A stretch of 64,000 nucleotides of DNA from an uncultured Flavobacterium sp. (lineage in GTDB: Bacteria > Bacteroidota > Bacteroidia > Flavobacteriales > Flavobacteriaceae), in assembly GCA_947632215.1 (NCBI GenBank), contig CANROJ010000001.1, positions 4,406 through 68,405 on the forward strand, written 5' to 3'. A program made the translations under genes and the position numbers. Of the stretch, positions 12,327 through 32,468 are shown in pieces. Position 1 is the stretch's first letter. Each line of letters starts with the position of its first letter. A model generated the notes under the pieces. That model did not search any database. It was not told the origin of the DNA and saw only the letters and a program-made list of their open reading frames with translations.

Positions 12327-12821
12327 CTACTTCTGGGTATACAATACGCTTTGGATTGTGTTAAACTCAGTGGGTTTTCCCTTTTGGAAATAATACTGGA
12401 TTAAAACTTCACCTTTTTGATTACCTGCATAAAAATCGGCAATAATCCAACGATGGTTTAAAAAGTGCACCTTATTAATAATGCATTTATTTCCATCAAT
12501 CTTATCATAAGGCACTAGAGCATTACCCTGTTCTTTATGGTTTAAAGCTAAAACCTCTTGTTCGACTTGATCTAAATCTTGGTCAATTGTCTTATAATTA
12601 AAATCCTCTTGGGCCTGGGCATTATTACTCAAGGCAAAGTAATTAACTAAACTTAACTCTTCTTGGACCAAATGCAATGAATCTCTAATTATTTCTATTC
12701 GCTTTTGCGCGATATCAATCCTTTTATCTGCACTTTCTCTCATATTATTATTGCTAGCAAATAGCAACACTACAATTAAGATGGAGAACATAAAAAGATA
12801 AAAAAACACCTTACTTTTCAT
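12327..12821 (-). CDS. Conserved hypothetical membrane-anchored protein
   Basis: N-terminal TM helix, coiled coil, INKVHFLNHRWIIADF motif. Confidence 0.6.
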   Translation of the reverse strand: MKSKVFFYLFMFSILIVVLLFASNNNMRESADKRIDIAQKRIEIIRDSLHLVQEELSLVNYFALSNNAQAQEDFNYKTIDQDLDQVEQEVLALNHKEQGNALVPYDKIDGNKCIINKVHFLNHRWIIADFYAGNQKGEVLIQYYFQKGKPTEFNTIQSVLYTQK

Positions 12822-17994: not shown

Positions 17995-20430
17995 ATGCAT
18001 ATTTCATACAATTGGTTAAAACAATTCATTAAATTAGACATCACACCAGAAGAAACTTCAGAAATACTAACAGACTTAGGTCTTGAAGTTGAAGGAATTA
18101 CTCATTACGAGAGCTTAAAAGGTGGTTTAAGAGGAGTTGTTGTAGGACACGTATTGTCATGTACTAAACACCCTAACGCTGATAAATTAAATGTTACTAA
18201 AGTTGATTTAGGTACAGGCGAGCCAGTACAAATAGTTTGTGGTGCTCCAAATGTTGCTCAAGGACAAAAAGTACCTGTTGCAACCATTGGTACAGAACTA
18301 TTTGATCAAGATGGTAACGCATTTCAAATTAAGAAAGGTAAAATACGCTCAGAAGAAAGCTTTGGAATGATTTGCTCTGAAGTAGAACTTGGAATTGGAA
18401 CAGATGGTTCGGGTATTTTGGTTTTAGACCAAGACTTAGCTCCTGGTACTCCAATGGCTGAAGTATTTAATATTGTAACAGATCAAGTATTCGAAATTGG
18501 GCTAACACCAAATAGATCTGACGCAATGAGCCACTGGGGAGTTGCTCGTGATTTACGTGCTGGTCTTTTACAAAACTCCAATAACGAAATACAACATAAA
18601 GAATTAATTACTCCTTCGGTAAGTAAATTCAAAGTAGAACAACGTACCTTAAAAATTGATGTAAGTGTACAGGACTATAAAATGGCTCCTCGTTACTGTG
18701 GGGTTACTATCTCTGGAATTGAAGTAAAACCTTCTCCGGATTGGTTACAAAATAGATTAAAAGCAATAGGAATAACTCCTAAAAACAATATTGTTGACGT
18801 TACAAATTATGTTCTTCATGATTTAGGTCAACCTTTACACGCTTTCGATGCAGCAAAAATAAAAGGTGGAAAAATCCAAGTTAAAACGGTAGAACAAGCT
18901 ACAAAATTTATCACTTTAGATGGTGTAGAACGCACACTAGATCAAAATGACTTAATGATTTGTGATGAAAACGGACCGATGTGTATGGCTGGAGTCTTTG
19001 GAGGACTAAAATCTGCTGTATCTGAAAACACTACCTCAATTTTCTTAGAAAGTGCTTATTTTGATCCAGTAGTTGTTAGAAAAACTGCTAAAAGACATGG
19101 ATTAAATACAGATTCATCTTTCCGTTTTGAAAGAGGAATTGATCCTTCTATCACAGAATACGCTCTAAAACACGCTGCATTACTTATTCAAAGAGTAGCA
19201 GGTGGAGAAATAACTTCAGATATCATTGATCTTTACCCTAAAAAGATTGAAGACCATTCTGTGTTTTTAAATTTTGATAATATAAATAGAATCTTAGGAG
19301 AAGAAATCCCTAAAGAAACTATTAAGAAAATATTAGTTACTCTAGATATTAAAGTTCACTCTATGAGCGATGTAGGATTAGGTATCACAGTACCTGCTTA
19401 TAGAACTGATGTAACTAGAGAAATTGATGTTATTGAAGAAATACTTCGCGTATATGGATTCAATAACATTAAAATATCTTCTAAGTTAAATGCTACTATT
19501 TCTAATAGCTCTAGAACAGAAGATCACAAAGTACAAAATATTGTTTCAAATTTACTTGTAGCTCAAGGATTCCATGAAATCATGAATAATTCATTGACTA
19601 CCCCTACTTACAGCGAACTAAGCGAATCAATAAACTCTTCTTTTCAAGTAGATATTCTAAATCCGCTAAGTTCAGATTTAAGTGTAATGAGACAGACCCT
19701 TCTTTTTGGAGGTTTAGAATCTATTTCTTACAATATCAACCGCAAAAGATCAGATCTTAAGTTATTCGAATTTGGTAAGACCTACCAAAAGAAATTAACT
19801 TCTTACGAAGAGCATAAAAAATTCTCTTTGTTTGCCACAGGTAACAATGTTAAGCCTTCATGGAATACTAAGGTTAAAGCGGTAGATTTCTTTGACTTTA
19901 AAGGACACATTAACGCTTTATTAGCACGCCTAGGACTAAATAAAGTTCAAACAGCTCCAGTACAAAACGATATCTTCTCAGAAGGAATTAGTTATGTTTT
20001 AGGAAAAGATACCCTTGTTGAATTCGGTATCTTGAAAAAGAGCATTACAAAGGCTTTTGATATTAAGCAAGACGTTTTCTATGCTGATTTTGAATGGGAA
20101 AATATTATGAAAGTACTTAGCAATAAGATTAAGTTCACAGATATTACCAAATACCCTTCAGTTAAGAGAGATTACGCTCTTTTGATAGACGAAGTAGTTA
20201 CTTTTGAACAAATCCACACTCTAGTAAAACAAGTAGATAAAAACATCATTAAAGACGTTACACTATTTGACTTTTACCAAGGAGACAAAATTGAACAAGG
20301 TAAAAAATCTTACGCTATTTCAATTCTAATGCAGGATGCATTAAAGACACTTACAGATAGCCAAGTAGAAAAAATAATGGGTAAAATTAAACACCAATTA
20401 GAAAACAATCTTGGTGCTCAATTAAGATAA
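17995..20430 (+). CDS. pheT: Phenylalanine-tRNA ligase beta subunit
   Basis: HPNADKL, VCGAPNV, TPNRSD, RFERGID, EEILRVYG, C-terminal anticodon-binding domain. Confidence 0.97.
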   Translation: MHISYNWLKQFIKLDITPEETSEILTDLGLEVEGITHYESLKGGLRGVVVGHVLSCTKHPNADKLNVTKVDLGTGEPVQIVCGAPNVAQGQKVPVATIGTELFDQDGNAFQIKKGKIRSEESFGMICSEVELGIGTDGSGILVLDQDLAPGTPMAEVFNIVTDQVFEIGLTPNRSDAMSHWGVARDLRAGLLQNSNNEIQHKELITPSVSKFKVEQRTLKIDVSVQDYKMAPRYCGVTISGIEVKPSPDWLQNRLKAIGITPKNNIVDVTNYVLHDLGQPLHAFDAAKIKGGKIQVKTVEQATKFITLDGVERTLDQNDLMICDENGPMCMAGVFGGLKSAVSENTTSIFLESAYFDPVVVRKTAKRHGLNTDSSFRFERGIDPSITEYALKHAALLIQRVAGGEITSDIIDLYPKKIEDHSVFLNFDNINRILGEEIPKETIKKILVTLDIKVHSMSDVGLGITVPAYRTDVTREIDVIEEILRVYGFNNIKISSKLNATISNSSRTEDHKVQNIVSNLLVAQGFHEIMNNSLTTPTYSELSESINSSFQVDILNPLSSDLSVMRQTLLFGGLESISYNINRKRSDLKLFEFGKTYQKKLTSYEEHKKFSLFATGNNVKPSWNTKVKAVDFFDFKGHINALLARLGLNKVQTAPVQNDIFSEGISYVLGKDTLVEFGILKKSITKAFDIKQDVFYADFEWENIMKVLSNKIKFTDITKYPSVKRDYALLIDEVVTFEQIHTLVKQVDKNIIKDVTLFDFYQGDKIEQGKKSYAISILMQDALKTLTDSQVEKIMGKIKHQLENNLGAQLR

Positions 20431-20435
20431 CAATA

Positions 20436-20467
20436 AAAAGGGAGATTCATTTTTGAATCTCCCTTTT
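20436..20467. terminator. Bidirectional intrinsic terminator after pheT
   Basis: aaaagggagattca-tttt-tgaatctccctttt perfect 14-bp stem. Confidence 0.88.
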
Positions 20468-20531
20468 ACTTTTTAAGTAGTGTGATATTTTCACGCCTGA
20501 TATCTTAGGTTATTTTCATCATTGGAAGTAG

Positions 20532-21113
20532 TTAATATAACTCGATAGCATTTTTATCTTTACCCCTCTTTTTATTCATACCATAATTATTAAGCTACTC
20601 TACATTAGCATCCATAAGTACTGCTTTATCTAAAATACCTGGCTCCACTAGAAGTTGATTCATACTATTACTAGAAATAGAACTTTTTAGCTGTATCCAC
20701 TGCTTTTTGGTGATTTGCTCCTCTTTCCTTGTATAATCAGCAATTCAATAATTGCCTTTTACATTTGCTTGATCTACTAATTCAAAATTAAAGAAACCAA
20801 CGCTATCTCTCGTTTTGACAACAAAACCTGGTGAATTCTTAAAATTTATCCGGATCATCTAACGCAGAAATCTCCTGGGTAAATCAAAACTTCCATATTC
20901 TACCACATAACACACCTTTAGCCTTTTGAATATTAAAGACATTAAAAACATCTCCTTCTTTGGTTAATTCCCATTCTACTAAATCAAGATCTTCTAATAC
21001 TTGGTAATTGCCAAGTTCAATCTTTTGAAATGTATGTAATCATTTGGTCTAAATCACACAGAAACAAAAACTAACAGAATAATGGACCTTTGAAAGAAAT
21101 TATATATTTTCAT
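20532..21113 (-). pseudogene. GLPGLI-family protein pseudogene
   Basis: Manual translation: signal peptide MKIYNFFQRSIILLVFVSV*, then EWELTKE..QKAKGVLCGRIWKF*FTQEISALDDPDKF, frameshifted (L)PGFVVKTRDS..FNFELV, C-terminus KNAIELY*; several stops, frameshifts and an internal deletion. Confidence 0.75.
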
Positions 21114-21136
21114 AACAAAATTATTTATAGTAATAT

Positions 21137-21826
21137 CAATAGCGCCCTAAATAAATTTAGAGCATAAGATATCCTCCCACTTTAGTAGGATACACGCTGG
21201 ATTTCGCTAAATATTAAAATATAACCTCTGCTGGATTTTTGGCGGGTTTTTCTACTTCATTTAGTGGATTGTATAGCTATTTTTGTAATGCAATCTTCAC
21301 AAACAGGTTTAGTCGTATAAAAGCAACTAAATTCGATAAATGCCAACCAAATTTGGACTGTGCACGTAGCGCTTTTAGTATTAAAATAGTGATAGGTGCT
21401 GTGCTAAACATTGCAGAAAAGTAAAATAATACTCTTTGAAAAGCTCATGAGTTCTGTTTTAATTTTGATAACTAACCCAGGTTTTAGAACAAGGTTTAGA
21501 AATACCTAGATGGTTTAATCTTGCTGTAGCACAGCGAAAGACCGTTGCTAATATCTCTAACTGAATTACTGCGCGAAAAATGGCACAATAGTATAGATAC
21601 TAAATAACACCAGCTATCAAAACCTTTCTTTAATGTATTTATCGGTCTGCTTCTCTTTTAGAGTTCTCTTGAATTTTGAGCGATCAAGTTTTGCTATTAT
21701 TTTGAGAAAATAATGTTATAATTGTCACTAAGAGAGTGATTTTTGGTACGCAACTTAAAAGTTAATTTGACAACCTTAATCTACTCTCTTTTTTGTGTTA
21801 TTATTTAAACGTTTAGGACGTTATTG
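21137..21826 (-). mobile_element. IS4-family (DUF4372-type) element, internally deleted, non-autonomous (copy 1)
   Basis: TIRs caatagcgccctaaa / tttaggacgttattg; keeps only the 5' and 3' parts of the transposase; homologous to 28956-30259. Confidence 0.88.
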
Positions 21827-22103
21827 ATTAATAATCTGGTAATAATTGGCTAGTTATTGTATGTCCTGCTCTTTATACTTTCAACCTATGATGATAGCTT
21901 TAGGGATTTTTTTAATGGAACATGTAATCACAGCGTCGTTTTCAAATATATCGATAAATACTAAATCTTGTATTTGTTGATCAGTCTCAAGGAAATTATT
22001 ATAGATACCACGAATTAAAATATTCTCACGTTCATTTTGACCTAAAAAATGCTCACTCTTTTAAAAAATATAAGACATTTTTTTATTCTATAATTTTCCT
22101 CAT
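21827..22103 (-). pseudogene. Decayed 5' gene fragment (possibly a GNAT acetyltransferase N-terminus) cut off by the IS end
   Basis: MRKIIE*KNVLYFLKE, then frameshift to HFLGQNERENILIRGIYNNFLE..LVFIDIFENDAVITCSIK..AIIIG*..LANYYQIIN, ending at the TIR; family call is from memory only. Confidence 0.35.
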
Positions 22104-22181
22104 TTACTTAAAGTTTTATTGTGTTCACACAGGTAACATCTAAATCTTAACAATTAACATCTACTATTGTTCACAGTAAAT

Positions 22182-22218
22182 AAAAAAGGTTGCCTTAAAA
22201 TATAAGACAACCTCTTTT
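22182..22218 (-). terminator. Terminator of the susC-susD-phosphoesterase operon
   Basis: Minus strand aaaagaggttgtctta...aaggcaacctttttt; stem with G-U pair and U run. Confidence 0.75.
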
Positions 22219-22251
22219 GGTTCTAAAGGATATACACTGAACTAAAATCCT

Positions 22252-23754
22252 TTAGGATCTATTAAACGTTTGGGTAAATACTTGACCGAAACGATCTACA
22301 ACTTCTACTTTAATTTCTTTAGCATCCTCACTTGGGTTAAACACAAACATGTGATCTGTTAAAGAAGGTTCTACCCATTTTCTACGCACAGGTAATTGCG
22401 GTCCACTATGTAATTCAACACTTAGAGGGTCTAAGGCTCTCACTTTAGTTAATGCGCCCATTTTGAGTCCGTCTTGGTAATAATGTGCTTTCCACTCAGG
22501 ATCCCAATTCCAGATATTAACTGCCCAATTCCCCATAAGGTTTTCTGCCTGAGAAGGCTCATAAACACGAAACTGAAAATCTTTATCTTGATCTGTTGCT
22601 TTATAATACCAGCTTAGTTCATTTCCTTTTACTTGGTATACTCCATAACCACTAGGAGTTCCATCCACGCAAATAGGCCCACTCCACCAAGCTCCACATA
22701 CCGTTCCATGACAATGTTCGAATATGTTTGGTTTTATTTGAATGTTCTCATTAAAGTGTGTATGTCCACTTAATATATGAGCATCATAATCGGCTAGAAT
22801 CTCATATAAATGCTCTCTATTGCTAACCATAGCGCCTAAAGAATTACTTTCAGGATTTCTTAAAAAATGTCCCGTATAAGAAGGAATATGCATCGCTAGG
22901 ATAACTAAACTTCCTGGTTTAACATATTGTAAATCTTGTACTAACCACTCTAATTGGTCTTCCGATAAATATCCAATATACTCTTTGCCCTTTCCTATAA
23001 AAAACACATCATCCATTACCACATAATGCGCCTTACCTTTATTAAAAGAATAATACGTTGGTCCGTACATATCCTCAAAGGTATTGGTAGAAGTCTCATC
23101 TGAACGCTTACCTAAATCCGCATCGTGGTTACCAAAAACCTGAAAAAATGGTATTTGGGTTTCTTGTATCCCTTTGTTATAAGAGGCAAATAAATCATGA
23201 CGATCCCAAACTAAATCTCCACATCCAATACCAAATATTTGGGGATCCAATTCTTTTGTAGTTTTTATTACATCAGGAATTGTTTGATCTAAAAACATTT
23301 GAGCTTCATCCGGCTTTTGAATCTGAGGGTCAGCTAGAACCACAAAACTATGATTATCATCCTTTTGCTTACTAGGGGTAAGTTCAAAGTTATAACTGCG
23401 ATTTGTCTTGGTTTTATCTAAAGTTAAAAACAAATTTGCACTACCATTATCTAACTGTGGAATTTGATAACCGCTAGGTAAACTAATAAATACAAATTCA
23501 CTTTTAGGATTTGCTTCAAAACTAAATTCTCCTTTCGCATTGGTTTGTATCACACTATACCCATCAGAAACACTTACTTGGTTTAATGGTTTACCTTTAC
23601 TAGTTACTTTTCCTTTCACTAAAATAGTACCAGAGTTTGATCCACCTTGTTGAGAATCTTCCATTGGAAAGCCTGTTGCACCTTGCACACCACTAACCGT
23701 TAGAGCTCCTACTCCAAGAGCCATATTCTTTATAAAATTACGTCTATTGTTCAT
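22252..23754 (-). CDS. Tat-exported calcineurin-like metallophosphoesterase with N- and C-terminal accessory domains
   Basis: Twin-arginine RRNFIK signal; ADPQ, GDLVWD, GNHD, MHIP, GHTH metal motifs; CGAWW, DGTPSGY. Confidence 0.9.
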   Translation of the reverse strand: MNNRRNFIKNMALGVGALTVSGVQGATGFPMEDSQQGGSNSGTILVKGKVTSKGKPLNQVSVSDGYSVIQTNAKGEFSFEANPKSEFVFISLPSGYQIPQLDNGSANLFLTLDKTKTNRSYNFELTPSKQKDDNHSFVVLADPQIQKPDEAQMFLDQTIPDVIKTTKELDPQIFGIGCGDLVWDRHDLFASYNKGIQETQIPFFQVFGNHDADLGKRSDETSTNTFEDMYGPTYYSFNKGKAHYVVMDDVFFIGKGKEYIGYLSEDQLEWLVQDLQYVKPGSLVILAMHIPSYTGHFLRNPESNSLGAMVSNREHLYEILADYDAHILSGHTHFNENIQIKPNIFEHCHGTVCGAWWSGPICVDGTPSGYGVYQVKGNELSWYYKATDQDKDFQFRVYEPSQAENLMGNWAVNIWNWDPEWKAHYYQDGLKMGALTKVRALDPLSVELHSGPQLPVRRKWVEPSLTDHMFVFNPSEDAKEIKVEVVDRFGQVFTQTFNRS

Positions 23755-23772
23755 TTTCGCTTTCTTTTTTAG

Positions 23773-25224
23773 TTAATTCTGCCACCAAGATTTATAATTG
23801 ATATTATCAGATCCCATCTTTTGAATTACTTTCTCGTAGTTAGTTTTGTTCTTTGTACGAACATCTAAAGGATATGGGAATCTACTTGGTAAATTTTGTC
23901 CATTACCCATTGCTTTTGTAACAGGTAGTTTAGGTAAACCTGTTCTTTTATATTCTAACCATTGTTGGTAATCGTTCATATACAGAGCGTAATATTTTTG
24001 CAGCATTATTTGCTCTAAAGTTCCATCATATTTCACAAGTGGGTTATTGAAATAATCTGCATCTATCTCTAAATCATAATAATCCATAGAAGCGTTAATT
24101 GCTTTATTGTAATATTCTTCTGCTCCTTGTAAGTATCCTTTTTGAGCTAACTCCACATGGATAAATAAAACTTCACTATAGGTTAATATTGCAGTCTTAG
24201 TACTTGGTTCAGCAATGATTCTATTTAAGTTAGATGCTTCATAATCGAATTGAGAATCTGGTCCATCATAAGCACTTGGAATACCTTTATATCCAATATC
24301 CACTCTTTCTCCATCAATTATCTTACTAGCTGTACCACTAAAGAAAGCTCTTCTTGGGTCGTTCATATCATTTAGATTATCTATAAAGAAAGCACCCATT
24401 TTCCTCCCATTATAGAAATCCTGTACCCTTGACCAAGGAGACACATTAGGTGAAATTCCTGTCATAAATAAAGTAGCCTCTTCTGCTATAGAATTAATGA
24501 TTGGGTATTTTTCTGGATTGGAAATCATACTAACCATTTTCTGGTAATTCTCAGGCATCTTATTAGTGGTACGAAGCAGTAAACGTAAATGTAAACTGTT
24601 GGTAAACTTCTGCCATTTCTTAGAGTCGTTTTCAAATAAAATATCAGGGTAGTAAACATTTGCTCTTGTATGATCATATAAACTGTTAGCTTGTTCTAAT
24701 AAAGCTAACAAGTCCATATAAACATCTTTTTGGTCATCAAAAACAGGATATAAAATCCCTTGATCTCCTTTGGAAGCTTCAAAGTAAGGTATATCTCCAA
24801 AAATATCCACTAAACTAGCACTCATCCAAACTTTTAAAGTAATTGCAATGGCTTGGTAGTTCACTTCATTAACTTCAATAGCAGATTGTTCCATTAACTG
24901 AGCGTTTTTTAAATACTTGTAATAAGTATTCCACGCTGCAGAACCTATATTGTCACTTAAATGGTAATGTTGAATACTGGTGGCTGTCGGGTTAGCTGGG
25001 AAATTAATAGTGTTTTGCATTAAAAGACTAGTATGTTGCCAACTGCGATACATATTATTGCTAGCTACCGTGTAAATCATCGGGTTTAATAAAGTAGCTG
25101 GGCTTATTTCCTGTAAACGGTTTGGGTCATGATTAGTAGATTCAAAATCATTGGTGCAACTAGTACTAAATACTCCTGCCAGCAAAGCTAAACTTGCTAC
25201 TAATGTGCTTGTTATTCTTTTCAT
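23773..25224 (-). CDS. SusD/RagB-family nutrient-binding outer-membrane lipoprotein
   Basis: Lipobox FSTSC, FGDIPYFEA, WQKFTNSLHLRLL, QWLEYKRTG, PSRFPYP. Confidence 0.92.
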   Translation of the reverse strand: MKRITSTLVASLALLAGVFSTSCTNDFESTNHDPNRLQEISPATLLNPMIYTVASNNMYRSWQHTSLLMQNTINFPANPTATSIQHYHLSDNIGSAAWNTYYKYLKNAQLMEQSAIEVNEVNYQAIAITLKVWMSASLVDIFGDIPYFEASKGDQGILYPVFDDQKDVYMDLLALLEQANSLYDHTRANVYYPDILFENDSKKWQKFTNSLHLRLLLRTTNKMPENYQKMVSMISNPEKYPIINSIAEEATLFMTGISPNVSPWSRVQDFYNGRKMGAFFIDNLNDMNDPRRAFFSGTASKIIDGERVDIGYKGIPSAYDGPDSQFDYEASNLNRIIAEPSTKTAILTYSEVLFIHVELAQKGYLQGAEEYYNKAINASMDYYDLEIDADYFNNPLVKYDGTLEQIMLQKYYALYMNDYQQWLEYKRTGLPKLPVTKAMGNGQNLPSRFPYPLDVRTKNKTNYEKVIQKMGSDNINYKSWWQN

Positions 25225-25229
25225 CTGTA

Positions 25230-28200
25230 TTAAAATTCTAATTTTATATTAAATCCATAGGTTGCTGGAGAAGGCATTTGCCCCATCTCTACTCCAGGCA
25301 TCATTGAACTCCCATTTAAAGCAGCGGTTTCAGGGTCAAAAATAGGGAAGCTACTAAGGGTTAATAGATTACGTCCATACACAGAAACTAGTAAGCGCTC
25401 TAATCCCATTTTATTAATTATTTTCTTTGGAAAACTATATTCTACACTGATATCACGTAGTTTGATGTAGGAAGCGTCAAAACTGTTAGATTCAAGATTT
25501 GCTCTTCTGTAGTAGGATTTATAATAATCGGCCGGAGCTACCTTTGTAGTATTTGGACTATACGTTCCATCTGTATTAGCCACCACACCATCTCCGATAA
25601 TATAACCTTGTTCACGTCCATATAAAGTGTGACCTAACTTTCCTTGCTCGGACATTTTGTGGTGCGTTTGAGAGTATACAATTCCACCATAAGAACCATC
25701 AATAGTCATACGAAGAGTTAAGTTTTTATATTTAAAAGTATTCACCCATCCTGCAGTCCAATCTGCATAAGCACTACCGATGTACTCAATATCGGTTGAG
25801 GCTACTGGAAGTCCGTTTTCTTCATAAATAACCTCTCCTAATTCATTTCGCTTAAACTTAGCTCCATAAATATCTCCGGTTGTCCCTCCAACTTTACCAA
25901 TAATTTGGGCATTCCCACTAGTGGCAAGTACTTGTTGATCTCCTCCTTCAAATTCCTTAGCTAAGGATAAAATTTGATTTTTATTGGTAGCCCAGTTTAA
26001 AATCATATCCCAAGAGAAGTCTTGTGTTTTAACTGGGGTTACGTTAAGCACTAGCTCAATACCTTTGTTTTCAACCTTTCCTGCATTCATAATAGAGTTT
26101 GCAAAACCTGTAGCGTAATTAAGAGGCACTACAATAATTTGGTCCTTAGAAAGTGTTTTATATAAAGAAACCTCTAGTCCTAATCTATTTTTAAACATTT
26201 TATGTTCATATCCTACTTCGTAACTAGTAGTTGTCTCTGGTTTTAGGTTCTTTGCTGGAAGTCTAGTAGGAGCTGTAGCACTACTACCAAATTCACTATT
26301 GTTATAATATAAAGCTGTTTGATAAGGATCTGTACCATTACCTACTCTAGCAAAAGAAAACCTCAACTTAGAATAATCAATAACACTCCCCATATTTAGC
26401 ATATCGCTTAATATTAAACTGGTATTTACCGAAGGATACATAAATGACCAATTGTCTTTCTCTAAAGTACTAGACCAGTCGTTACGTAATGTTGCATCAA
26501 CGAATACCATATTTTTATATCCAAAAGATGCCATTCCATATACAGAATTAACCTTCTTGTTTCTATCTTCAACCACCGTATAAGGCTTATCTATTCCATT
26601 GGCAAGCATATATACTCCAGGGGTAACTAACCCAGTTACAGAAGCTCTTACACTATGCCATCTACTATCTAACATGTTGGCACCTACAGAGGCACTATAG
26701 CTGAAATTCTCTTTGGTATCTTCGTTAAAGGTTAATAGGAAATCAGTGTTGATTTCTTGGAAGTTAATTTGTGTAGTAGAAAAAGACCCTCTACCAAACT
26801 TAGATGTATTGTAAGGTCTTCTTTCTTCGCGTTTATCATTACGACTATTTAAAGTCCCCCTAAGCATTAAGGTTAATTTAGGTGCGATTTCTATATCCGT
26901 AGAAAGTGCTCCATTTATAGTATTTGCATCCACCGAATTCGTGGTCTCGTATGCAATTAAATAAGGATTTTCTATATAAGAACTAAAAGGGTGAATTTGT
27001 TGAGTTTGATTATACCCTTGTTTCCAAATTGGTCGGTACCAATCTAAATCCACGTTAGGATTTTGGAAGATCATAAAGTAACCAATAGTATGGTTTCCAT
27101 ATCCTGTTCCAGGTAAGTTATCACTACTTCTATTAGAATAACTAATACTAGTATTAACTACTACTCCTTTAGAAATCTCATAATTCCCTTTGGTAGACAC
27201 AGTGGTGCGGTCAAAACCAGTATTAGGCATTATCCAATCATTCTTACTCTTAGAGATAGTTGCTCTAACACTTCCTTTTTCATTACCTCCTGAAAGTCCT
27301 ACTGTATTTGTAGTAGTTACCCCAGTTCTCCAGAAATCTTTAATATTATTTTTATAAGGTTTCCATAATGTTGGAGCGCTTCCTTGAGCTTCGGTTACTG
27401 GATCGTACTGGTAAAACTCTTGTCCTTCAAATTTAGGTCCAAAAGCACTACTGGTACTTCCTGTATTTCCTCCATGCTCGGAAATACCATACGAGTAGTA
27501 TGGATTTCCGTCTTTATCAAAACTTTTTCCTGCACCTTGACCATATTCATACTGGTAATCTGGCCATTTTTGAATTACATCGAAACTAACATTCGAGCTA
27601 AAACTAATTCCAAGACCGTTGCTGTTTCTCTTTCCTGATTTGGTGGTAATCATCAAAACCCCGTTACTTGCTCTAGATCCGTATAAAGCAGCTGCACCAG
27701 CTCCCTTTAAAACAGATATACTTTCAATATCGTCTGGATTTAAATCCGCAATTCCGTTTCCATAATCTACCGGGGCATCTACTCCGATATAAGAATTATC
27801 TGATCCGTTACCCCATAAATCTCCTCCAACGATAATGCCGTCCACAACAACAAGTGCACCATTGGCGCTTAAATTAATCGAACGATCTCCTCGTAGTTTT
27901 AAAATTGAAGAGTTCATTGGTCCAGAATTGGAAGAAATAACAGTAAGACCTGCAACTTTACCTTTTAATTCGTCCGACCAGTTATTAGATCTTGCATTGT
28001 CATACTCGTCAGCTGTAATAGTTTGTTGAGAGAAACCTAATTGCTTCTGCTCTCGCTTTATTCCTAAAGCTGTTACTACTACCTCTTCTAACAGGCTATG
28101 CTCAAGCTCCATCTGTACTTTTATTTCTTTACCTAAAGTAGCTTGTACTTGCTGGGGTTTTAATCCCATAAAAGAAACATTTAATGTATATTGATCAGCA

Positions 28201-28472
28201 ACAGTTTTTGTTCTAATCTCAAAATAACCTTGCATATCGGTTAAGGCTGTAATGGGTTCTGATTGTAACTCCACTAAAGCACCAGGTAGGCCTTCTCCAA
28301 ACTCATCTAACACGATTCCTTTTAGAATAGTGGTTTGGTCCTGTGTAACGCCTAAAACATTCTTCGATGCATCGTTTTGGTTTTCACTGCTATTACCAGC
28401 CTTGGCAGAGGCACCTGCTAAGATAAAACTTAAACATACTAAAGAAATGTAACTCGGTTTGATTGGTTTCAT
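25230..28472 (-). CDS. SusC/RagA-family TonB-dependent transporter
   Basis: EVVVTALGIKRE, DIESISVLKGAGAAALYGSRASNGVLMITTKSG plug signature, RNDWSSTL, C-terminal GFNIKLEF. Confidence 0.96.
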   Translation of the reverse strand: MKPIKPSYISLVCLSFILAGASAKAGNSSENQNDASKNVLGVTQDQTTILKGIVLDEFGEGLPGALVELQSEPITALTDMQGYFEIRTKTVADQYTLNVSFMGLKPQQVQATLGKEIKVQMELEHSLLEEVVVTALGIKREQKQLGFSQQTITADEYDNARSNNWSDELKGKVAGLTVISSNSGPMNSSILKLRGDRSINLSANGALVVVDGIIVGGDLWGNGSDNSYIGVDAPVDYGNGIADLNPDDIESISVLKGAGAAALYGSRASNGVLMITTKSGKRNSNGLGISFSSNVSFDVIQKWPDYQYEYGQGAGKSFDKDGNPYYSYGISEHGGNTGSTSSAFGPKFEGQEFYQYDPVTEAQGSAPTLWKPYKNNIKDFWRTGVTTTNTVGLSGGNEKGSVRATISKSKNDWIMPNTGFDRTTVSTKGNYEISKGVVVNTSISYSNRSSDNLPGTGYGNHTIGYFMIFQNPNVDLDWYRPIWKQGYNQTQQIHPFSSYIENPYLIAYETTNSVDANTINGALSTDIEIAPKLTLMLRGTLNSRNDKREERRPYNTSKFGRGSFSTTQINFQEINTDFLLTFNEDTKENFSYSASVGANMLDSRWHSVRASVTGLVTPGVYMLANGIDKPYTVVEDRNKKVNSVYGMASFGYKNMVFVDATLRNDWSSTLEKDNWSFMYPSVNTSLILSDMLNMGSVIDYSKLRFSFARVGNGTDPYQTALYYNNSEFGSSATAPTRLPAKNLKPETTTSYEVGYEHKMFKNRLGLEVSLYKTLSKDQIIVVPLNYATGFANSIMNAGKVENKGIELVLNVTPVKTQDFSWDMILNWATNKNQILSLAKEFEGGDQQVLATSGNAQIIGKVGGTTGDIYGAKFKRNELGEVIYEENGLPVASTDIEYIGSAYADWTAGWVNTFKYKNLTLRMTIDGSYGGIVYSQTHHKMSEQGKLGHTLYGREQGYIIGDGVVANTDGTYSPNTTKVAPADYYKSYYRRANLESNSFDASYIKLRDISVEYSFPKKIINKMGLERLLVSVYGRNLLTLSSFPIFDPETAALNGSSMMPGVEMGQMPSPATYGFNIKLEF

Positions 28473-28802
28473 AATTACTCTAAGGGTTAATACTATTTGT
28501 ATTTATTATTTATGCAAATCAAGAAAAAATAAATGCAAACAATACTCTTTGAAAATTACCTTTACAATAAGTAAATAACACCAGAATATTAACGCAACCC
28601 CCGTATTTAAAAGGTTTTCACTAGATAAAACACTTAACCCAACCACTAATTTACCTTCAAAAACAGCTGTTTTATTATAAAGTATTTTGAAGAATATCTA
28701 TCAAAATATAAACGAGTAAAAGACACTACATAAACTATTTAGGTAAATCTATTAACCAAGAAACTGTTATTTTAAAAGTAGAAGCAAGAACTTATAAAAT
28801 GC

Positions 28803-28833
28803 AGCAAAGGGCATCTATAGGATGCCCTTTGCT
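28803..28833. terminator. Orphan strong hairpin, probably the terminator of a truncated gene
   Basis: agcaaagggcatc-tatag-gatgccctttgct perfect 13-bp stem. Confidence 0.7.
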
Positions 28834-28849
28834 TAGTATTAACAATACG

Positions 28850-28954
28850 TTAACTTAATACAAGTTGTACTCCTATGTAAAGTATACGTTGTGAAAATGA
28901 ATCGGCAATAACATCGTTTATGGCATTACTGTTAACAGTAGTGATTATTTTTAT
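28850..28954 (-). pseudogene. 3' end of a gene truncated by the IS (possible outer-membrane beta-barrel C-terminus)
   Basis: 34 sense codons IKIITTVNSNAINDVIADSFSQRILYIGVQLVLS* run from the TIR to a stop just before the 28803 hairpin. Confidence 0.3.
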
Positions 28955-28955
28955 C

Positions 28956-30259
28956 CAATAGCGTCCTAAATAAATTTAGGCCATAAGATATCCTCCCACT
29001 CTAGTAGGATACAAGCTGTATTTCGTTAAATATTAAAATAGAATCCCCTGTTGGGGTTTTGGTGGTGGTTTTTCTACTTTATTTAGTGGATTATTTAGCC
29101 ATTTTTATAATTCAATCTTCACAAACAGGTTTATTTGTATAAAAGCACCTAAATTCGATAGATGTCAACCAAATTTGGACTGTGCTCGTACCCCTTATAG
29201 TATTAAAATAGTGATAAGTGCTGTCCATATTTGGATTATCCTAGCATTATGTGAAGTCCCAACAAAGGATTTTATGTGTAGAAGTTCTTTAAGATCTTTA
29301 AAGAATATCTACACCATTGATCTACTTTTATACAGCTCACTAATTGTATTAGTAGTCCAAGTAAATTGGTTGGTAATTAATTCAATGACTTACTGGTTCT
29401 TAGGGTCCCACACAGCTACTGATCTATTAAAACGTGATAATGCCTGTTTTTCGGTAATTCTAACTCGTTAATCGTTTCAAATTTCAAGTTGCCTTTACCT
29501 CTAATTACAAAGCGTACTTGTTTACTCTCCTAAAGGTTTAACAAGCTAAAATCATTGTAAAAACGATCAGCAACAATAACGCTACCTTTTAGTAAAGGTA
29601 TATCGCAAGGGCCTTTATTATTAGCTGTTATACCATCTGTTATGTGGATATAAGCTGGTAGAAGCCCATCAAAATCAAGTAAAACACCCATTTTAACAGC
29701 TCCTTTGTTAGTCTTGCATTTACCCCAATCAAAGATACTTAACCATAGAGATATTGTGGTGGAGTCATGAAGTAAAATTTTGGATTTGATACGAAGCTTT
29801 ATCTGCTTAAATTTTTTTTTTGGGGAGGGAGGGCTGTCCTAAAGATTGAAGTTAAGTAAAATAATACTCTTTGAAAAGCTCATGAGTTCTGTTTTAATTT
29901 TGATAACTAACCCAGGTTTTAGAACAAGGTTTAGAAATACCTAGATGGTTTAATCTTGCTGTAGCACAGCGAAAGACCGTTGCTAATATCTCTAACTGAA
30001 TTACTGCGCGCCAAATGGCACAATAGCATAGATACTAAATGACTTGTAGCTATCAAAACCTTTATTGTGTTTATCGGTCTGCTTCTCTTTTTAGAATCCT
30101 CTTGAATTTTGAGCGATCAATTTTTGCAATTATTTTGAGAAAACAATGTTATAATTGTCATTAAGAGACTGATTTTTGGTACGCAACTTAAAAGATAATT
30201 TGAAATCCTTAATCTACTCTCTTTTTTTGTGTCTTTTTTAAACGTTTAGGACCCTATTG
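28956..30259 (-). mobile_element. IS4-family (DUF4372-type) element, near full length but decayed (copy 2)
   Basis: TIRs caatagcgtcctaaa / tttaggaccctattg; contains a transposase pseudogene. Confidence 0.92.
29033..30161 (-). pseudogene. IS4-family DDE transposase pseudogene
   Basis: Manual translation: MTIITLFSQ..HLVSMLLCHLA.SNSVRDISNG..DSTTISL..FDW..KGAVK..VADRFYNDF..ELITN..ELYKSR..IFFKDLK..IKSFVGTS.NA..IQIWTALI; many stops and frameshifts. Confidence 0.92.
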
Positions 30260-30444
30260 ATTAAAGATCACTTAAAGCCTCAAATAGATATATTATATAA
30301 TAAATTACTACCGCCATAGCCCTGCCCAATCTAGATCAATAAACTTAAATCATTAGAGCTACTTTATTACAAACTTTTAGTAATTCATTAGCAATATCCA
30401 ACACACTAAAGACATACTGTATAAATTACTTCTTTATCTTAAAC

Positions 30445-30479
30445 AAAAAAACCGTCCCTATTAAAGGAACGGTTCTTTT
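30445..30479 (-). terminator. Terminator after sucD
   Basis: aaaaaaaccgtccc-tattaaa-ggaacggttctttt imperfect stem with U run on the minus strand. Confidence 0.7.
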
Positions 30480-30501
30480 GTTATGTAAAAACAAGTTAGG
30501 A

Positions 30502-31374
30502 CTAACCTAAAACTTCTTTAACTTTCTTACCTATTTCAGCTGGTGAGTCTACAACGTGGATACCACATTCTCTCATGATGCGTTTTTTAGCAGCAGCAGT
30601 ATCATCTGTACCACCTACAATAGCACCTGCGTGACCCATTGTTCTACCTACTGGAGCAGTTTCTCCTGCGATGAATCCAATTACAGGTTTTCTGTTTCCG
30701 TCTTCTTTAATCCAACGAGCAGCATCTGCTTCTAATTGTCCTCCAATTTCACCAATCATAATGATTGCCTCAGTCTCAGGATCATTCATTAATAATTGAA
30801 CCGCTTCTTTAGTAGAAGTTCCAATAATTGGATCTCCACCAATTCCAATAGCAGTTGTAACTCCTAATCCTTCTTTAACTACTTGGTCAGCTGCCTCATA
30901 AGTTAAAGTTCCAGATTTAGAAACAATTCCTACAGTTCCTTTTTTAAATACAAAACCTGGCATAATACCAACCTTAGCTTCCCCTGGTGTAATTACACCT
31001 GGACAGTTAGGACCAACTAAACGACAATCTCTATCTTGGATGTAAGCATAAGCTTTGATCATATCAGCCACAGGAATTCCCTCTGTAATACAGATAATAA
31101 CTTTAATTCCCGCATCAGCAGCTTCCATAATTGCATCAGCAGCAAACGCTGGCGGTACGAAAATAATAGAAGTATCTGCCCCTGCTTTCTCAACAGCATC
31201 TGCCACTGTATTAAACACTGGACGATCTAAATGAGTGTTTCCTCCTTTACCTGGAGTAACTCCACCAACAACATTTGTCCCGTATTCAATCATTTGAGAA
31301 GCATGGAAAGTACCTTCACTTCCAGTAAACCCTTGAACGATTACTTTTGAATTTTTATTTACTAAAACACTCAT
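30502..31374 (-). CDS. sucD: Succinate-CoA ligase alpha subunit
   Basis: [35 protein letters not shown] (phospho-His). Confidence 0.97.
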
Positions 31375-31532: not shown

Positions 31533-32468
31533 TTAAATAGACTTTACTTTTTCTAAAATTGTAGGAATTTTCTTTATGTTAGCTAACTGCTTTAACATAT
31601 CGCGAGATTCCTGAGCTGGGTAACCAAAGTAAACTTTACCACCAGCTAAAGATTTAGAAATACCAGATTGAGCTAAAACAACTGCTTTGCTTCCAATGGT
31701 AATGCCACTAGCACTACCTACTTGTCCCCAAAGAGTAACTTCATCTTCAATAATTACACAACCCGCAATACCACATTGAGCAGCAATTAAACAACGCTTA
31801 CCAACCGAGGTATCATGACCGATGTGAACTTGGTTATCAATCTTAGTACCTTCTTGAATTAGAGTATCTCCTGTAACTCCACGGTCAATAGTACACAAGG
31901 CACCAATTCCAACGTTATCTTGAATAACAACTCTACCACAAGAAATTAAAGGATCGAAACCTTCTGGTCTTTTTTTATAATAAAATGCATCTGCACCCAA
32001 GATACTACCTGCAGCAATAGTAACGTTATCACCAATAATGGTACCGTCATTAATAACTACATTGGGATGTATAACACAGTTTTTACCTATAACTACATTA
32101 TAACCAATAAAAACATTTGGTTGAATAATAGTTCCCTGACCTATAACTGCATCTTCTGACATAGCCACTTTTGCAGGTTTGAAAGGGTTAAAAAATGTGG
32201 ATAACTTATTGAAATCTCTCCATGGATCCTCTGAGATAAGCAAAGCTTTTCCCTGTGGACATGGAACATCTTTATTAATTAGGATAATACTAGCATTAGA
32301 ATTTAATGCCTTATCGTAATACTTAGGATGATCAACAAATACGATTTCACCAGGTTGTACCACATGAATTTCATTCATACCATATACCGGAAAATCAACA
32401 TCGCCTACAAAATCGCACCCAATAATTTGTGCGATAGTCTGTAAATCTTGAACTTTTGCAAAACGCAT
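31533..32468 (-). CDS. Second LpxD-like hexapeptide-repeat N-acyltransferase
   Basis: LpxD N-terminal domain, left-handed beta-helix, IDRG, KIDNQVHIGH (catalytic His retained). Confidence 0.85.
   Translation of the reverse strand: MRFAKVQDLQTIAQIIGCDFVGDVDFPVYGMNEIHVVQPGEIVFVDHPKYYDKALNSNASIILINKDVPCPQGKALLISEDPWRDFNKLSTFFNPFKPAKVAMSEDAVIGQGTIIQPNVFIGYNVVIGKNCVIHPNVVINDGTIIGDNVTIAAGSILGADAFYYKKRPEGFDPLISCGRVVIQDNVGIGALCTIDRGVTGDTLIQEGTKIDNQVHIGHDTSVGKRCLIAAQCGIAGCVIIEDEVTLWGQVGSASGITIGSKAVVLAQSGISKSLAGGKVYFGYPAQESRDMLKQLANIKKIPTILEKVKSI

Follow-up and report, generated by a model that had tools for sequence, protein, structure and literature searches.

A SusCD-metallophosphoesterase operon bracketed by two IS4-family relics lies in a lineage-specific accessory islet of a Myroides-like genome

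The compound transposons Tn10 and Tn5 have arms that belong to the IS4 family of insertion sequences (IS10 and IS50, respectively). In Flavobacterium johnsoniae, SusCD-like "PusCD" complexes are induced by phosphate depletion, and the Pus systems co-localize with periplasmic phosphodiesterases, including a calcineurin-like PF00149 enzyme (Lidbury et al., ISME J 2020; PMC8115612). PusCD1/2 are required for growth on phosphatidylinositol and glycerophosphoinositol, with hydrolysis occurring in the periplasm (Connolly et al., bioRxiv 10.64898/2026.09.03.749221), and the organophosphates imported by Pus systems include glycerophosphoinositol and inositol phosphate (PMC8115612; bioRxiv 10.64898/2026.09.03.749221). 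Here, we describe a locus with features of both kinds of system in a 64,000-nucleotide stretch from an uncultured Flavobacterium sp. (GenBank assembly GCA_947632215.1, contig CANROJ010000001.1, positions 4,406 to 68,405 of the forward strand; the whole stretch is referred to as the window, and coordinates are those of the window). Between pheT and sucD, two insertion sequence (IS) relics, IS-A and IS-B, enclose an operon for a SusC-type transporter, a SusD-like lipoprotein and a metallophosphoesterase (MPE). A first-pass annotation of this DNA had described a composite-transposon-like island. We judge it probable, on balance, that the region is a lineage-specific accessory islet of ∼10 kb in which the IS relics are old scars within a larger acquired block and not its vehicle.

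The genome of the window is Myroides-like (34% G+C), and its pheT product shares 82-85% amino acid identity with those of M. injenensis, M. odoratimimus, M. marinus and two further Myroides, M. injenensis being the closest named relative by this measure. Coding density is high throughout the window except at 20431-22251 and 28473-30501. The conserved borders of the region are as follows:

17995-20430, plus strand: pheT, phenylalanine-tRNA ligase beta subunit (TIGR00472, 833 bits), left conserved border
20436-20467, plus strand: pheT terminator hairpin, a 14-pair stem followed by a T-run
30502-31374, minus strand: sucD, succinate-CoA ligase alpha subunit (NF004230, 432 bits), right conserved border

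In Myroides sp. WP-1 and DW712, sucD (94% amino acid identity to that of the window) adjoins pheT in convergent orientation across a spacer of ∼200 bp that consists of two terminators only, with no IS, no operon and no solo IS or scar. The gene order sucD-lpxD-efp-lpxA is the same in both relatives and in the window, and both have a hairpin directly 3′ of pheT; on the left side, this terminator is the last feature that the window shares with them. With the end of the pheT terminator at 20467 and the start of the sucD terminator (∼30450-30480) near 30450, the window holds ∼10 kb of extra DNA in the pheT-sucD interval (islet at ∼20475-30445). The search for an empty site proposed in the first-pass annotation was therefore positive (∼200 bp in WP-1 and DW712 versus ∼10 kb in the window) and supports the region as a lineage-specific insertion. 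The annotation had also named the finding that would undo its own reading, namely the same operon at this locus without IS elements in sister species; since WP-1 and DW712 have neither IS nor operon between pheT and sucD, this pattern was not seen. In M. odoratimimus and M. marinus other genes follow pheT, the first encoding a methylmalonyl-CoA-mutase fusion, and synteny within Myroides breaks down 3′ of pheT. In M. injenensis, contig NZ_BAEX01000021.1 stops 5 bp past the pheT stop codon (12433-12438), which suggests that a repeat, possibly an IS, occupies the equivalent site there.

Within the 7129 bp between the IS copies (21827-28955), three intact genes lie on the minus strand, with gaps of 5 bp and 18 bp:

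28473-28690, minus strand: susC 5′ region and promoter, kept in the nearest cassette relative and part of the cargo module
25230-28472, minus strand: SusC/RagA-type TonB-dependent transporter, 1080 amino acids (TIGR04056, 572 bits, cut-off 368)
23773-25224, minus strand: SusD-like_2 surface lipoprotein, 483 amino acids (PF12771, 383 bits)
22252-23754, minus strand: MPE exported by twin-arginine translocation (Tat), similar to purple acid phosphatases, 500 amino acids (MetallophosN, Metallophos, MetallophosC)
22182-22218, minus strand: operon terminator, a 16-pair stem followed by a T-run

Coding of the cargo is intact, and the length, the domain matches and the 16-pair stem bear out the earlier description of ∼7.1 kb holding a complete susC-susD-metallophosphoesterase operon with its own terminator. 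SusC also carries the TIGR04057 signature (59 bits versus 46) together with PF07715 (Plug) and PF13715, and a signal peptide was read; SusD follows susC after the 5-bp gap and has its lipobox cysteine at residue 22 (N-terminus ...LLAGVFSTSC). The MPE matched PF16370 (160 bits), PF16371 (83 bits) and PF00149 (35 bits). Its N-terminus is MNNRRNFIK, with R4, R5 and F7 invariant in 32 homologues, so that the Tat signal proposed in the first-pass annotation was upheld. The same 32 homologues retain the dimetal ligand motifs (GD, GNHD, H and GHTH); residues D142, D180, N209-H210-D211, H289, H331 and H333 are invariant, with the histidine of motif I replaced by an invariant glutamine (Gln144). The single MPE sequence found no match among PDB sequences; a family profile gave a weak match to purple acid phosphatase (E = 6e-7). 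The nearest solved folds to an AlphaFold model (pLDDT 82) were purple acid phosphatases and other dimetal phosphatases, none of them a close match. Over ∼200 bp upstream of susC, mean column identity to the nearest cassette relative was 76%, with conserved blocks that include ATTTACTTATTG and CTTG(A/T)TTTG; as this stretch is conserved, the module comprises promoter, three genes and terminator.

Ten contigs from 10 sample accessions share the architecture of the window at 99.7-99.99% identity, and the islet is fixed in the species, as had been concluded from the first reading. The species occurs in metagenomes from the gut of rabbits and pigs, from soil, food production and compost, and from insect and bovine sources. 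Elsewhere the accessory cassette has other genomic locations. In its nearest relative (81%, 80% and 71% amino acid identity for SusC, SusD and MPE, respectively) it lies between Redoxin and a Na/H exchanger and has only the promoter and three genes in common with the window; when the flanking genes of the nearest cassettes were searched in the window, only the three cargo genes matched. A Myroides metagenome-assembled genome (MAG) and two other contigs carry a ∼60% version downstream of rpoC-DUF3467, and the best 120 MPE matches include no named Myroides. The nearest cassette relative also has an IS of the same IS4 lineage at TATAAAAAC, 1.9 kb upstream of susC, in the same orientation relative to susC as IS-B; the site is occupied in one strain and unoccupied in the other. 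This polymorphism marks the IS as active, and its landing near the cassette took the form of a simple insertion. No IS4-like transposase was found within 10 kb of 80 homologous MPE loci. Among near-identical strains, dense clusters of single nucleotide polymorphisms (3-6%) were seen at the 3′ end of pheT (19893-20406; one same-species contig and public runs X5, X8 and X9) and in lpxD (32055-32187; another same-species contig). These clusters resemble short imported recombination tracts, and the pheT tract ends at the islet border.

The present arrangement would also arise if the operon had stood at this locus ancestrally, the sister species had lost it and the IS copies had inserted later and independently. 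The cargo values for G+C at third codon positions (GC3, 0.24-0.26) and its codon usage fall within the range of window core genes, the 3′ side of pheT was already a synteny breakpoint (M. odoratimimus and M. marinus), and the IS lineage inserts singly near the cassette in a relative. Against this, two species keep a clean spacer of ∼200 bp with two terminators and no solo IS or scar, the best 120 homologues include no named Myroides, a further Myroides MAG carries just the 60% version, at a different locus, and neither IS has a strict target duplication of its own. We therefore consider ancestral presence very improbable.

A repeat search of the window returned one long direct-repeat pair (21137-21836 and 28956-30269), split into blocks by indels, which corresponds to the two IS relics:

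21137-21826, minus strand: IS-A, IS4-family relic of 690 bp with both terminal repeats kept and an internal deletion of ∼610 bp
28956-30259, minus strand: IS-B, near full-length IS4-family relic of 1304 bp with multiple frameshifts and stops

The two are homologous, lie in direct orientation and are 92.5% identical over 682 aligned nucleotides. A 15-nucleotide motif, CAATAG(C/G)G(T/C)CCTAAA or a one-mismatch variant, stands at all four ends (CAATAGCGCCCTAAA, CAATAACGTCCTAAA, CAATAGCGTCCTAAA and CAATAGGGTCCTAAA); four matches compare with 0.7 expected by chance, and four were reached in 2 of 100 shuffles. The outer ends, CAATAGCGCCCTAAA (21137) and CAATAGGGTCCTAAA (30259), are each 1 nucleotide off the ends of intact copies. 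When stitched, the minus-strand frame of IS-B gives a pseudo-protein of ∼388 amino acids that matches NCBIfam NF033592, "IS4 family transposase" (160.5 bits, cut-off 115), as well as DDE_Tnp_1 (PF01609, 54.8 bits) and DUF4372 (PF14294, 46.4 bits). With the repeat pair, the four ends and the NF033592 match, the earlier identification of two homologous IS4 elements in the same orientation with 15-bp terminal inverted repeats stands. Both transposases are dead, as first read: the IS-B gene has many frameshifts and stops, and IS-A additionally lacks ∼610 bp of the DDE core, deleted between two copies of the microhomology GGACAGC. The nearest intact proteins are IS4 transposases of 385-389 amino acids, many from Myroides, with ∼70-73% identity to the IS-B pseudo-protein. 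A comparison of IS-B with plasmid records returned one weak 20% match only. In four metagenome runs, IS-B-like sequence (28982-30283) was 2.5-25 times deeper than the adjoining cargo, which points to more copies of this IS lineage in those communities, possibly in the same genome. Contigs of the four runs showed no deletion or solo-IS alleles, only the extra IS depth and a 262-bp deletion (see below).

The overall identity of the IS copies is that of a mosaic. Compared with the window, three same-species contigs from other samples have 23 differences in IS-A, all within 21445-21565, a tract that in the window is identical to IS-B 29880-30000; in the other strains the tract lacks both the TAA stop and the 1-nucleotide insertion that the window copies have in common. 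The clustered differences and the missing stop and insertion thus reveal a strain-specific gene conversion from IS-B to IS-A across 21445-21565. In its unconverted form the tract is 81% identical between IS-A and IS-B, about the same distance as that of either copy to an intact relative, and the copies are therefore old (∼19% diverged where unconverted). Descent from a dead common progenitor, proposed from a shared stop and shared frameshifts, was largely withdrawn, two of the three shared lesions lying inside the converted tract. Gene conversion between decayed IS copies can accordingly mimic "shared lesions" and a recent common origin, which matters for composite transposon calls made from sequence alone.

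To compare flanks, five intact relatives were taken; CP102754.1 (Myroides) contributed four and a Myroides MAG the fifth. These elements measure 1331-1346 bp, encode transposases of 385-389 amino acids with DUF4372 and DDE_Tnp_1, and have the same terminal repeats as the window copies (CAATA(A/G)CGTCCTAAA). Since these relatives define the element ends, the borders of the window copies are fixed at 21137-21826 and 28956-30259. A perfect 9-bp target duplication (9/9) surrounds all five. In the window, the corresponding 9-bp comparisons gave 3/9 for IS-A, 3/9 for IS-B, 4/9 for the outer pair and 5/9 for the inner pair (null mean, 2.7 matches); this result agrees with the earlier statement that no target duplication is visible. 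Four or fewer matches in the outer pair would be unlikely under a real duplication, even with ∼19% decay (∼81% retention; P about 0.02). The IS-A flanks reach 7/9 only with a 2-nucleotide offset (P about 0.05), which hints weakly at a simple insertion. The 10 nucleotides outside the two transposase-start ends, ATTAATAATC at 21827-21836 (an inner flank) and ATTAAAGATC at 30260-30269 (an outer flank), agree at 8/10 positions (null P about 0.002).

Homologous recombination between IS copies could have built the islet without the unit ever having transposed: incoming circular or linear DNA bearing the operon and one IS would have recombined with a resident IS between pheT and sucD, and IS-mediated deletions would later have reshaped the flanks. 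Recombination between the copies is documented by the gene conversion tract, every IS end lacks a duplication partner, as is typical of reshuffled flanks or adjacent deletion, and the 8/10 identity outside the transposase-start ends hints at a non-transpositional duplication. However, integration into a resident IS predicts a matching duplication in the outer flanks (4/9 observed), several undocumented steps are needed, and a solo-IS allele was found in no strain or relative. We regard this route as quite improbable.

Inserted DNA reaches beyond the IS pair, ∼660 bp past IS-A and ∼190 bp past IS-B, and the flanks of the two relics are made up as follows:

20535-21112, minus strand: GLPGLI-family pseudogene outside the IS pair, starting 25 bp away from the outer IS-A end
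21827-22181, no strand assigned: inner flank of IS-A (R2), AT-rich, with a stop-interrupted minus-strand frame
28803-28833, minus strand: orphan terminator by the inner end of IS-B, strong, a 13-pair stem with 7 GC pairs
28860-28955, minus strand: tail of an open reading frame (ORF), 34 codons, preceding the orphan terminator (from translation)
30260-30448, no strand assigned: outer flank of IS-B (R4), non-coding spacer up to the sucD terminator (from the reading of frames and the empty-site comparison)

Searched exhaustively with HMMER, the stitched minus-strand reading of 20598-21039 matched 42 proteins of ∼270 amino acids, all of the GLPGLI family (TIGR01200); a word-indexed homology search with the stitched protein from this region returned no match. 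By tblastn, GLPGLI residues ∼106-276 align to 21048-20535 and reach the natural C-terminus. The pseudogene begins with a start codon and signal peptide of its own (21112) and contains an internal deletion of ∼85 codons, frameshifts and stops; the gene is absent from the empty-site relatives WP-1 and DW712. In public run X8 a 262-bp deletion lies within it (window 20476-20739), which shows continuing decay of the remnant. The first-pass annotation had placed broken genes at both inner IS ends, which could not be borne out: for the inner flanks (21827-22181 and 28700-28955) no homologue could be detected, every minus-strand frame of the four flanks came back empty from a Pfam scan, and tblastx comparisons of these flanks with all retrieved loci and with the remainder of the window gave no match. 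The sole identifiable broken gene is the GLPGLI pseudogene, at the outer end of IS-A. The idea that IS-A split a single gene, with R2 and the GLPGLI region as its halves, was rejected: GLPGLI homologues (residues ∼106-276) align to the GLPGLI region only, the pseudogene has its own start and signal peptide, and R2 is unlike a GLPGLI N-terminus. Removal of IS-B in silico joins 28860-28955 to 30260 in a 35-codon ORF, with its ATG across the junction, that ends just before the terminator at 28833-28803; this is probably due to chance.

The borders of the insert bear directly on whether the locus is a true compound transposon, in which two IS4 copies captured the operon in a donor, along with short remnants of donor neighbour genes, and the 9.1-kb unit moved into the pheT-sucD spacer beside a resident GLPGLI gene before its transposases decayed. 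Two direct copies of the same IS lineage surround the cargo, with recognizable terminal inverted repeats at both outer ends, and the sister species WP-1 and DW712 have an empty site. R2 and the distal part of the flank by IS-B (the orphan terminator) are unlike the target and the flanks of other cassettes, as donor remnants would be; related genomes have the cassette at different loci, and the IS-B-like depth of 2.5-25 times the cargo means that copies acting in trans may exist. Yet the outer flanks, at 4/9, are at chance level (P about 0.02 given ∼81% retention), ∼660 bp of non-native DNA with the GLPGLI pseudogene lies outside IS-A, so that the insert is not bounded by the outer IS ends, and the copies are ∼19% diverged where unconverted. 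No second site was seen for the unit from IS-A to IS-B, all 10 contigs placing it at one locus, JGI metagenome contigs scanned for exact copies of the IS-B inner junction gave 0 matches, and no intact copy is known nearer than 85% DNA identity. We consider such a history unlikely. It is likewise doubtful that the IS pair moved a SusCD organic-phosphorus operon between Flavobacteriaceae chromosomes in trans, with the duplication and one border later erased by IS-mediated rearrangement; if true, this would be a documented case of an insertion-sequence-borne "Pus/PUL-like" module (PUL, polysaccharide utilization locus). The name "composite transposon" thus fits the shape of the locus, with its flanking IS copies and its empty site, and as a mechanism it is only partly supported, given the missing 9-bp duplication, the DNA beyond the IS pair, the diverged copies and the single site.

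Between the IS copies, the operon encodes SusC, SusD and MPE only, with no carbohydrate-active enzyme (CAZyme) and no regulator. Two upstream neighbours and one downstream neighbour of MPE homologues were counted at 37 metagenome loci, giving SusD-like_2 (20), DUF5689 (14), PhoD (5), GDPD (4) and a type I phosphodiesterase (NPP; 1). One close cassette adjoins a phosphate-selective porin (Porin_O_P). As had been proposed, the cargo plausibly serves to scavenge organophosphates and does not form a glycan locus; the missing CAZyme, the Tat-exported phosphoesterase, the PhoD, GDPD and porin neighbours of its homologues and the likeness to Pus all point that way. Many MPE homologues with PhoD, GDPD and DUF5689 neighbours have no SusCD partner.

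Taken together, an accessory islet of ∼10 kb acquired by this lineage remains the account that we hold, on balance, to be probable, and the IS relics were probably not the vehicle that delivered the operon. The acquired block would have held the operon, the GLPGLI gene and other genes that are now unrecognizable, and would subsequently have gained and lost IS-associated DNA, and the two Myroides IS4-family relics that bracket the operon would be old, decayed scars in or around this larger block, later partly homogenized by gene conversion. By analogy with PusCD, the SusD-like lipoprotein may capture an organophosphate at the cell surface and the SusC-like TonB-dependent barrel may import it; the phosphoesterase would fold with its two metals in the cytoplasm, be exported by the Tat route and release phosphate in the periplasm. 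We infer the substrate class, the regulation and the order of events.

Several points weigh against this account. The layout is exactly that of a compound transposon (the same IS, direct orientation and usable repeats at each of the four ends, including the outer pair), and a composite could have landed next to a GLPGLI gene that already occupied the site. The composition of the cargo is core-like (GC3 of 0.24-0.26 versus 0.27 +/- 0.045, with codon usage inside the range of window core genes) and therefore gives no sign of foreign origin; ancestral presence with loss elsewhere is compatible with these values. Missing target duplications count against two simple insertions as well, and no simple model is positively supported. 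As to function, none of the RNA-seq runs searched for the cargo held its sequence, and the SusD proteins differ when compared by domain families (PF07980 and PF14322 in PusD1, PF12771/PF12741 in the window), on which basis the window protein is not an orthologue of PusD1 or PusD2.

The locus is a clear case, controlled by an empty site, in which a SusCD-plus-phosphoesterase ("Pus-like") operon of the SusD-like_2/MetallophosN-C variant behaves as accessory DNA in a host- and soil-associated Myroides. The function of the operon fits a published system, the claim of mobility is unproven, and no new question is opened.

Compared with the intact IS4 element of Myroides, the window copies share the terminal repeats, a length of ∼1.3 kb and an NF033592 match above cut-off, at 81-85% DNA identity, but they are pseudogenized and lack the 9-bp duplication that all five intact Myroides copies have. 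Like Tn10 and Tn5, the locus consists of two copies of one IS4-family element around a cargo operon, with terminal inverted repeats at all four ends; unlike them, it has arms in direct instead of inverted orientation that are 8-19% diverged, no target duplication, dead transposases, an insert that extends beyond the arms and one observed site only. With the PULs of Bacteroidota it shares a SusC/SusD core and a downstream hydrolytic enzyme, but this enzyme is a phosphoesterase, and the combination that defines a PUL (SusCD, carbohydrate-active enzymes and a dedicated regulator) was not found between the IS copies, where glycoside hydrolases, lyases and esterases are missing, as are hybrid two-component and extracytoplasmic function (ECF) regulators. 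Unlike the Pus systems, the window operon includes neither a phosphatidylinositol-specific phospholipase C (PI-PLC) nor an ECF sigma/anti-sigma pair, and its enzyme has a Tat signal, compared with Sec for the Pus1 enzymes, and extra MetallophosN and MetallophosC domains. In common with Pus of F. johnsoniae, a SusC-like and a SusD-like protein are encoded together with phosphoesterases and without CAZymes, and the region is an ordinary accessory islet that belongs to known kinds.

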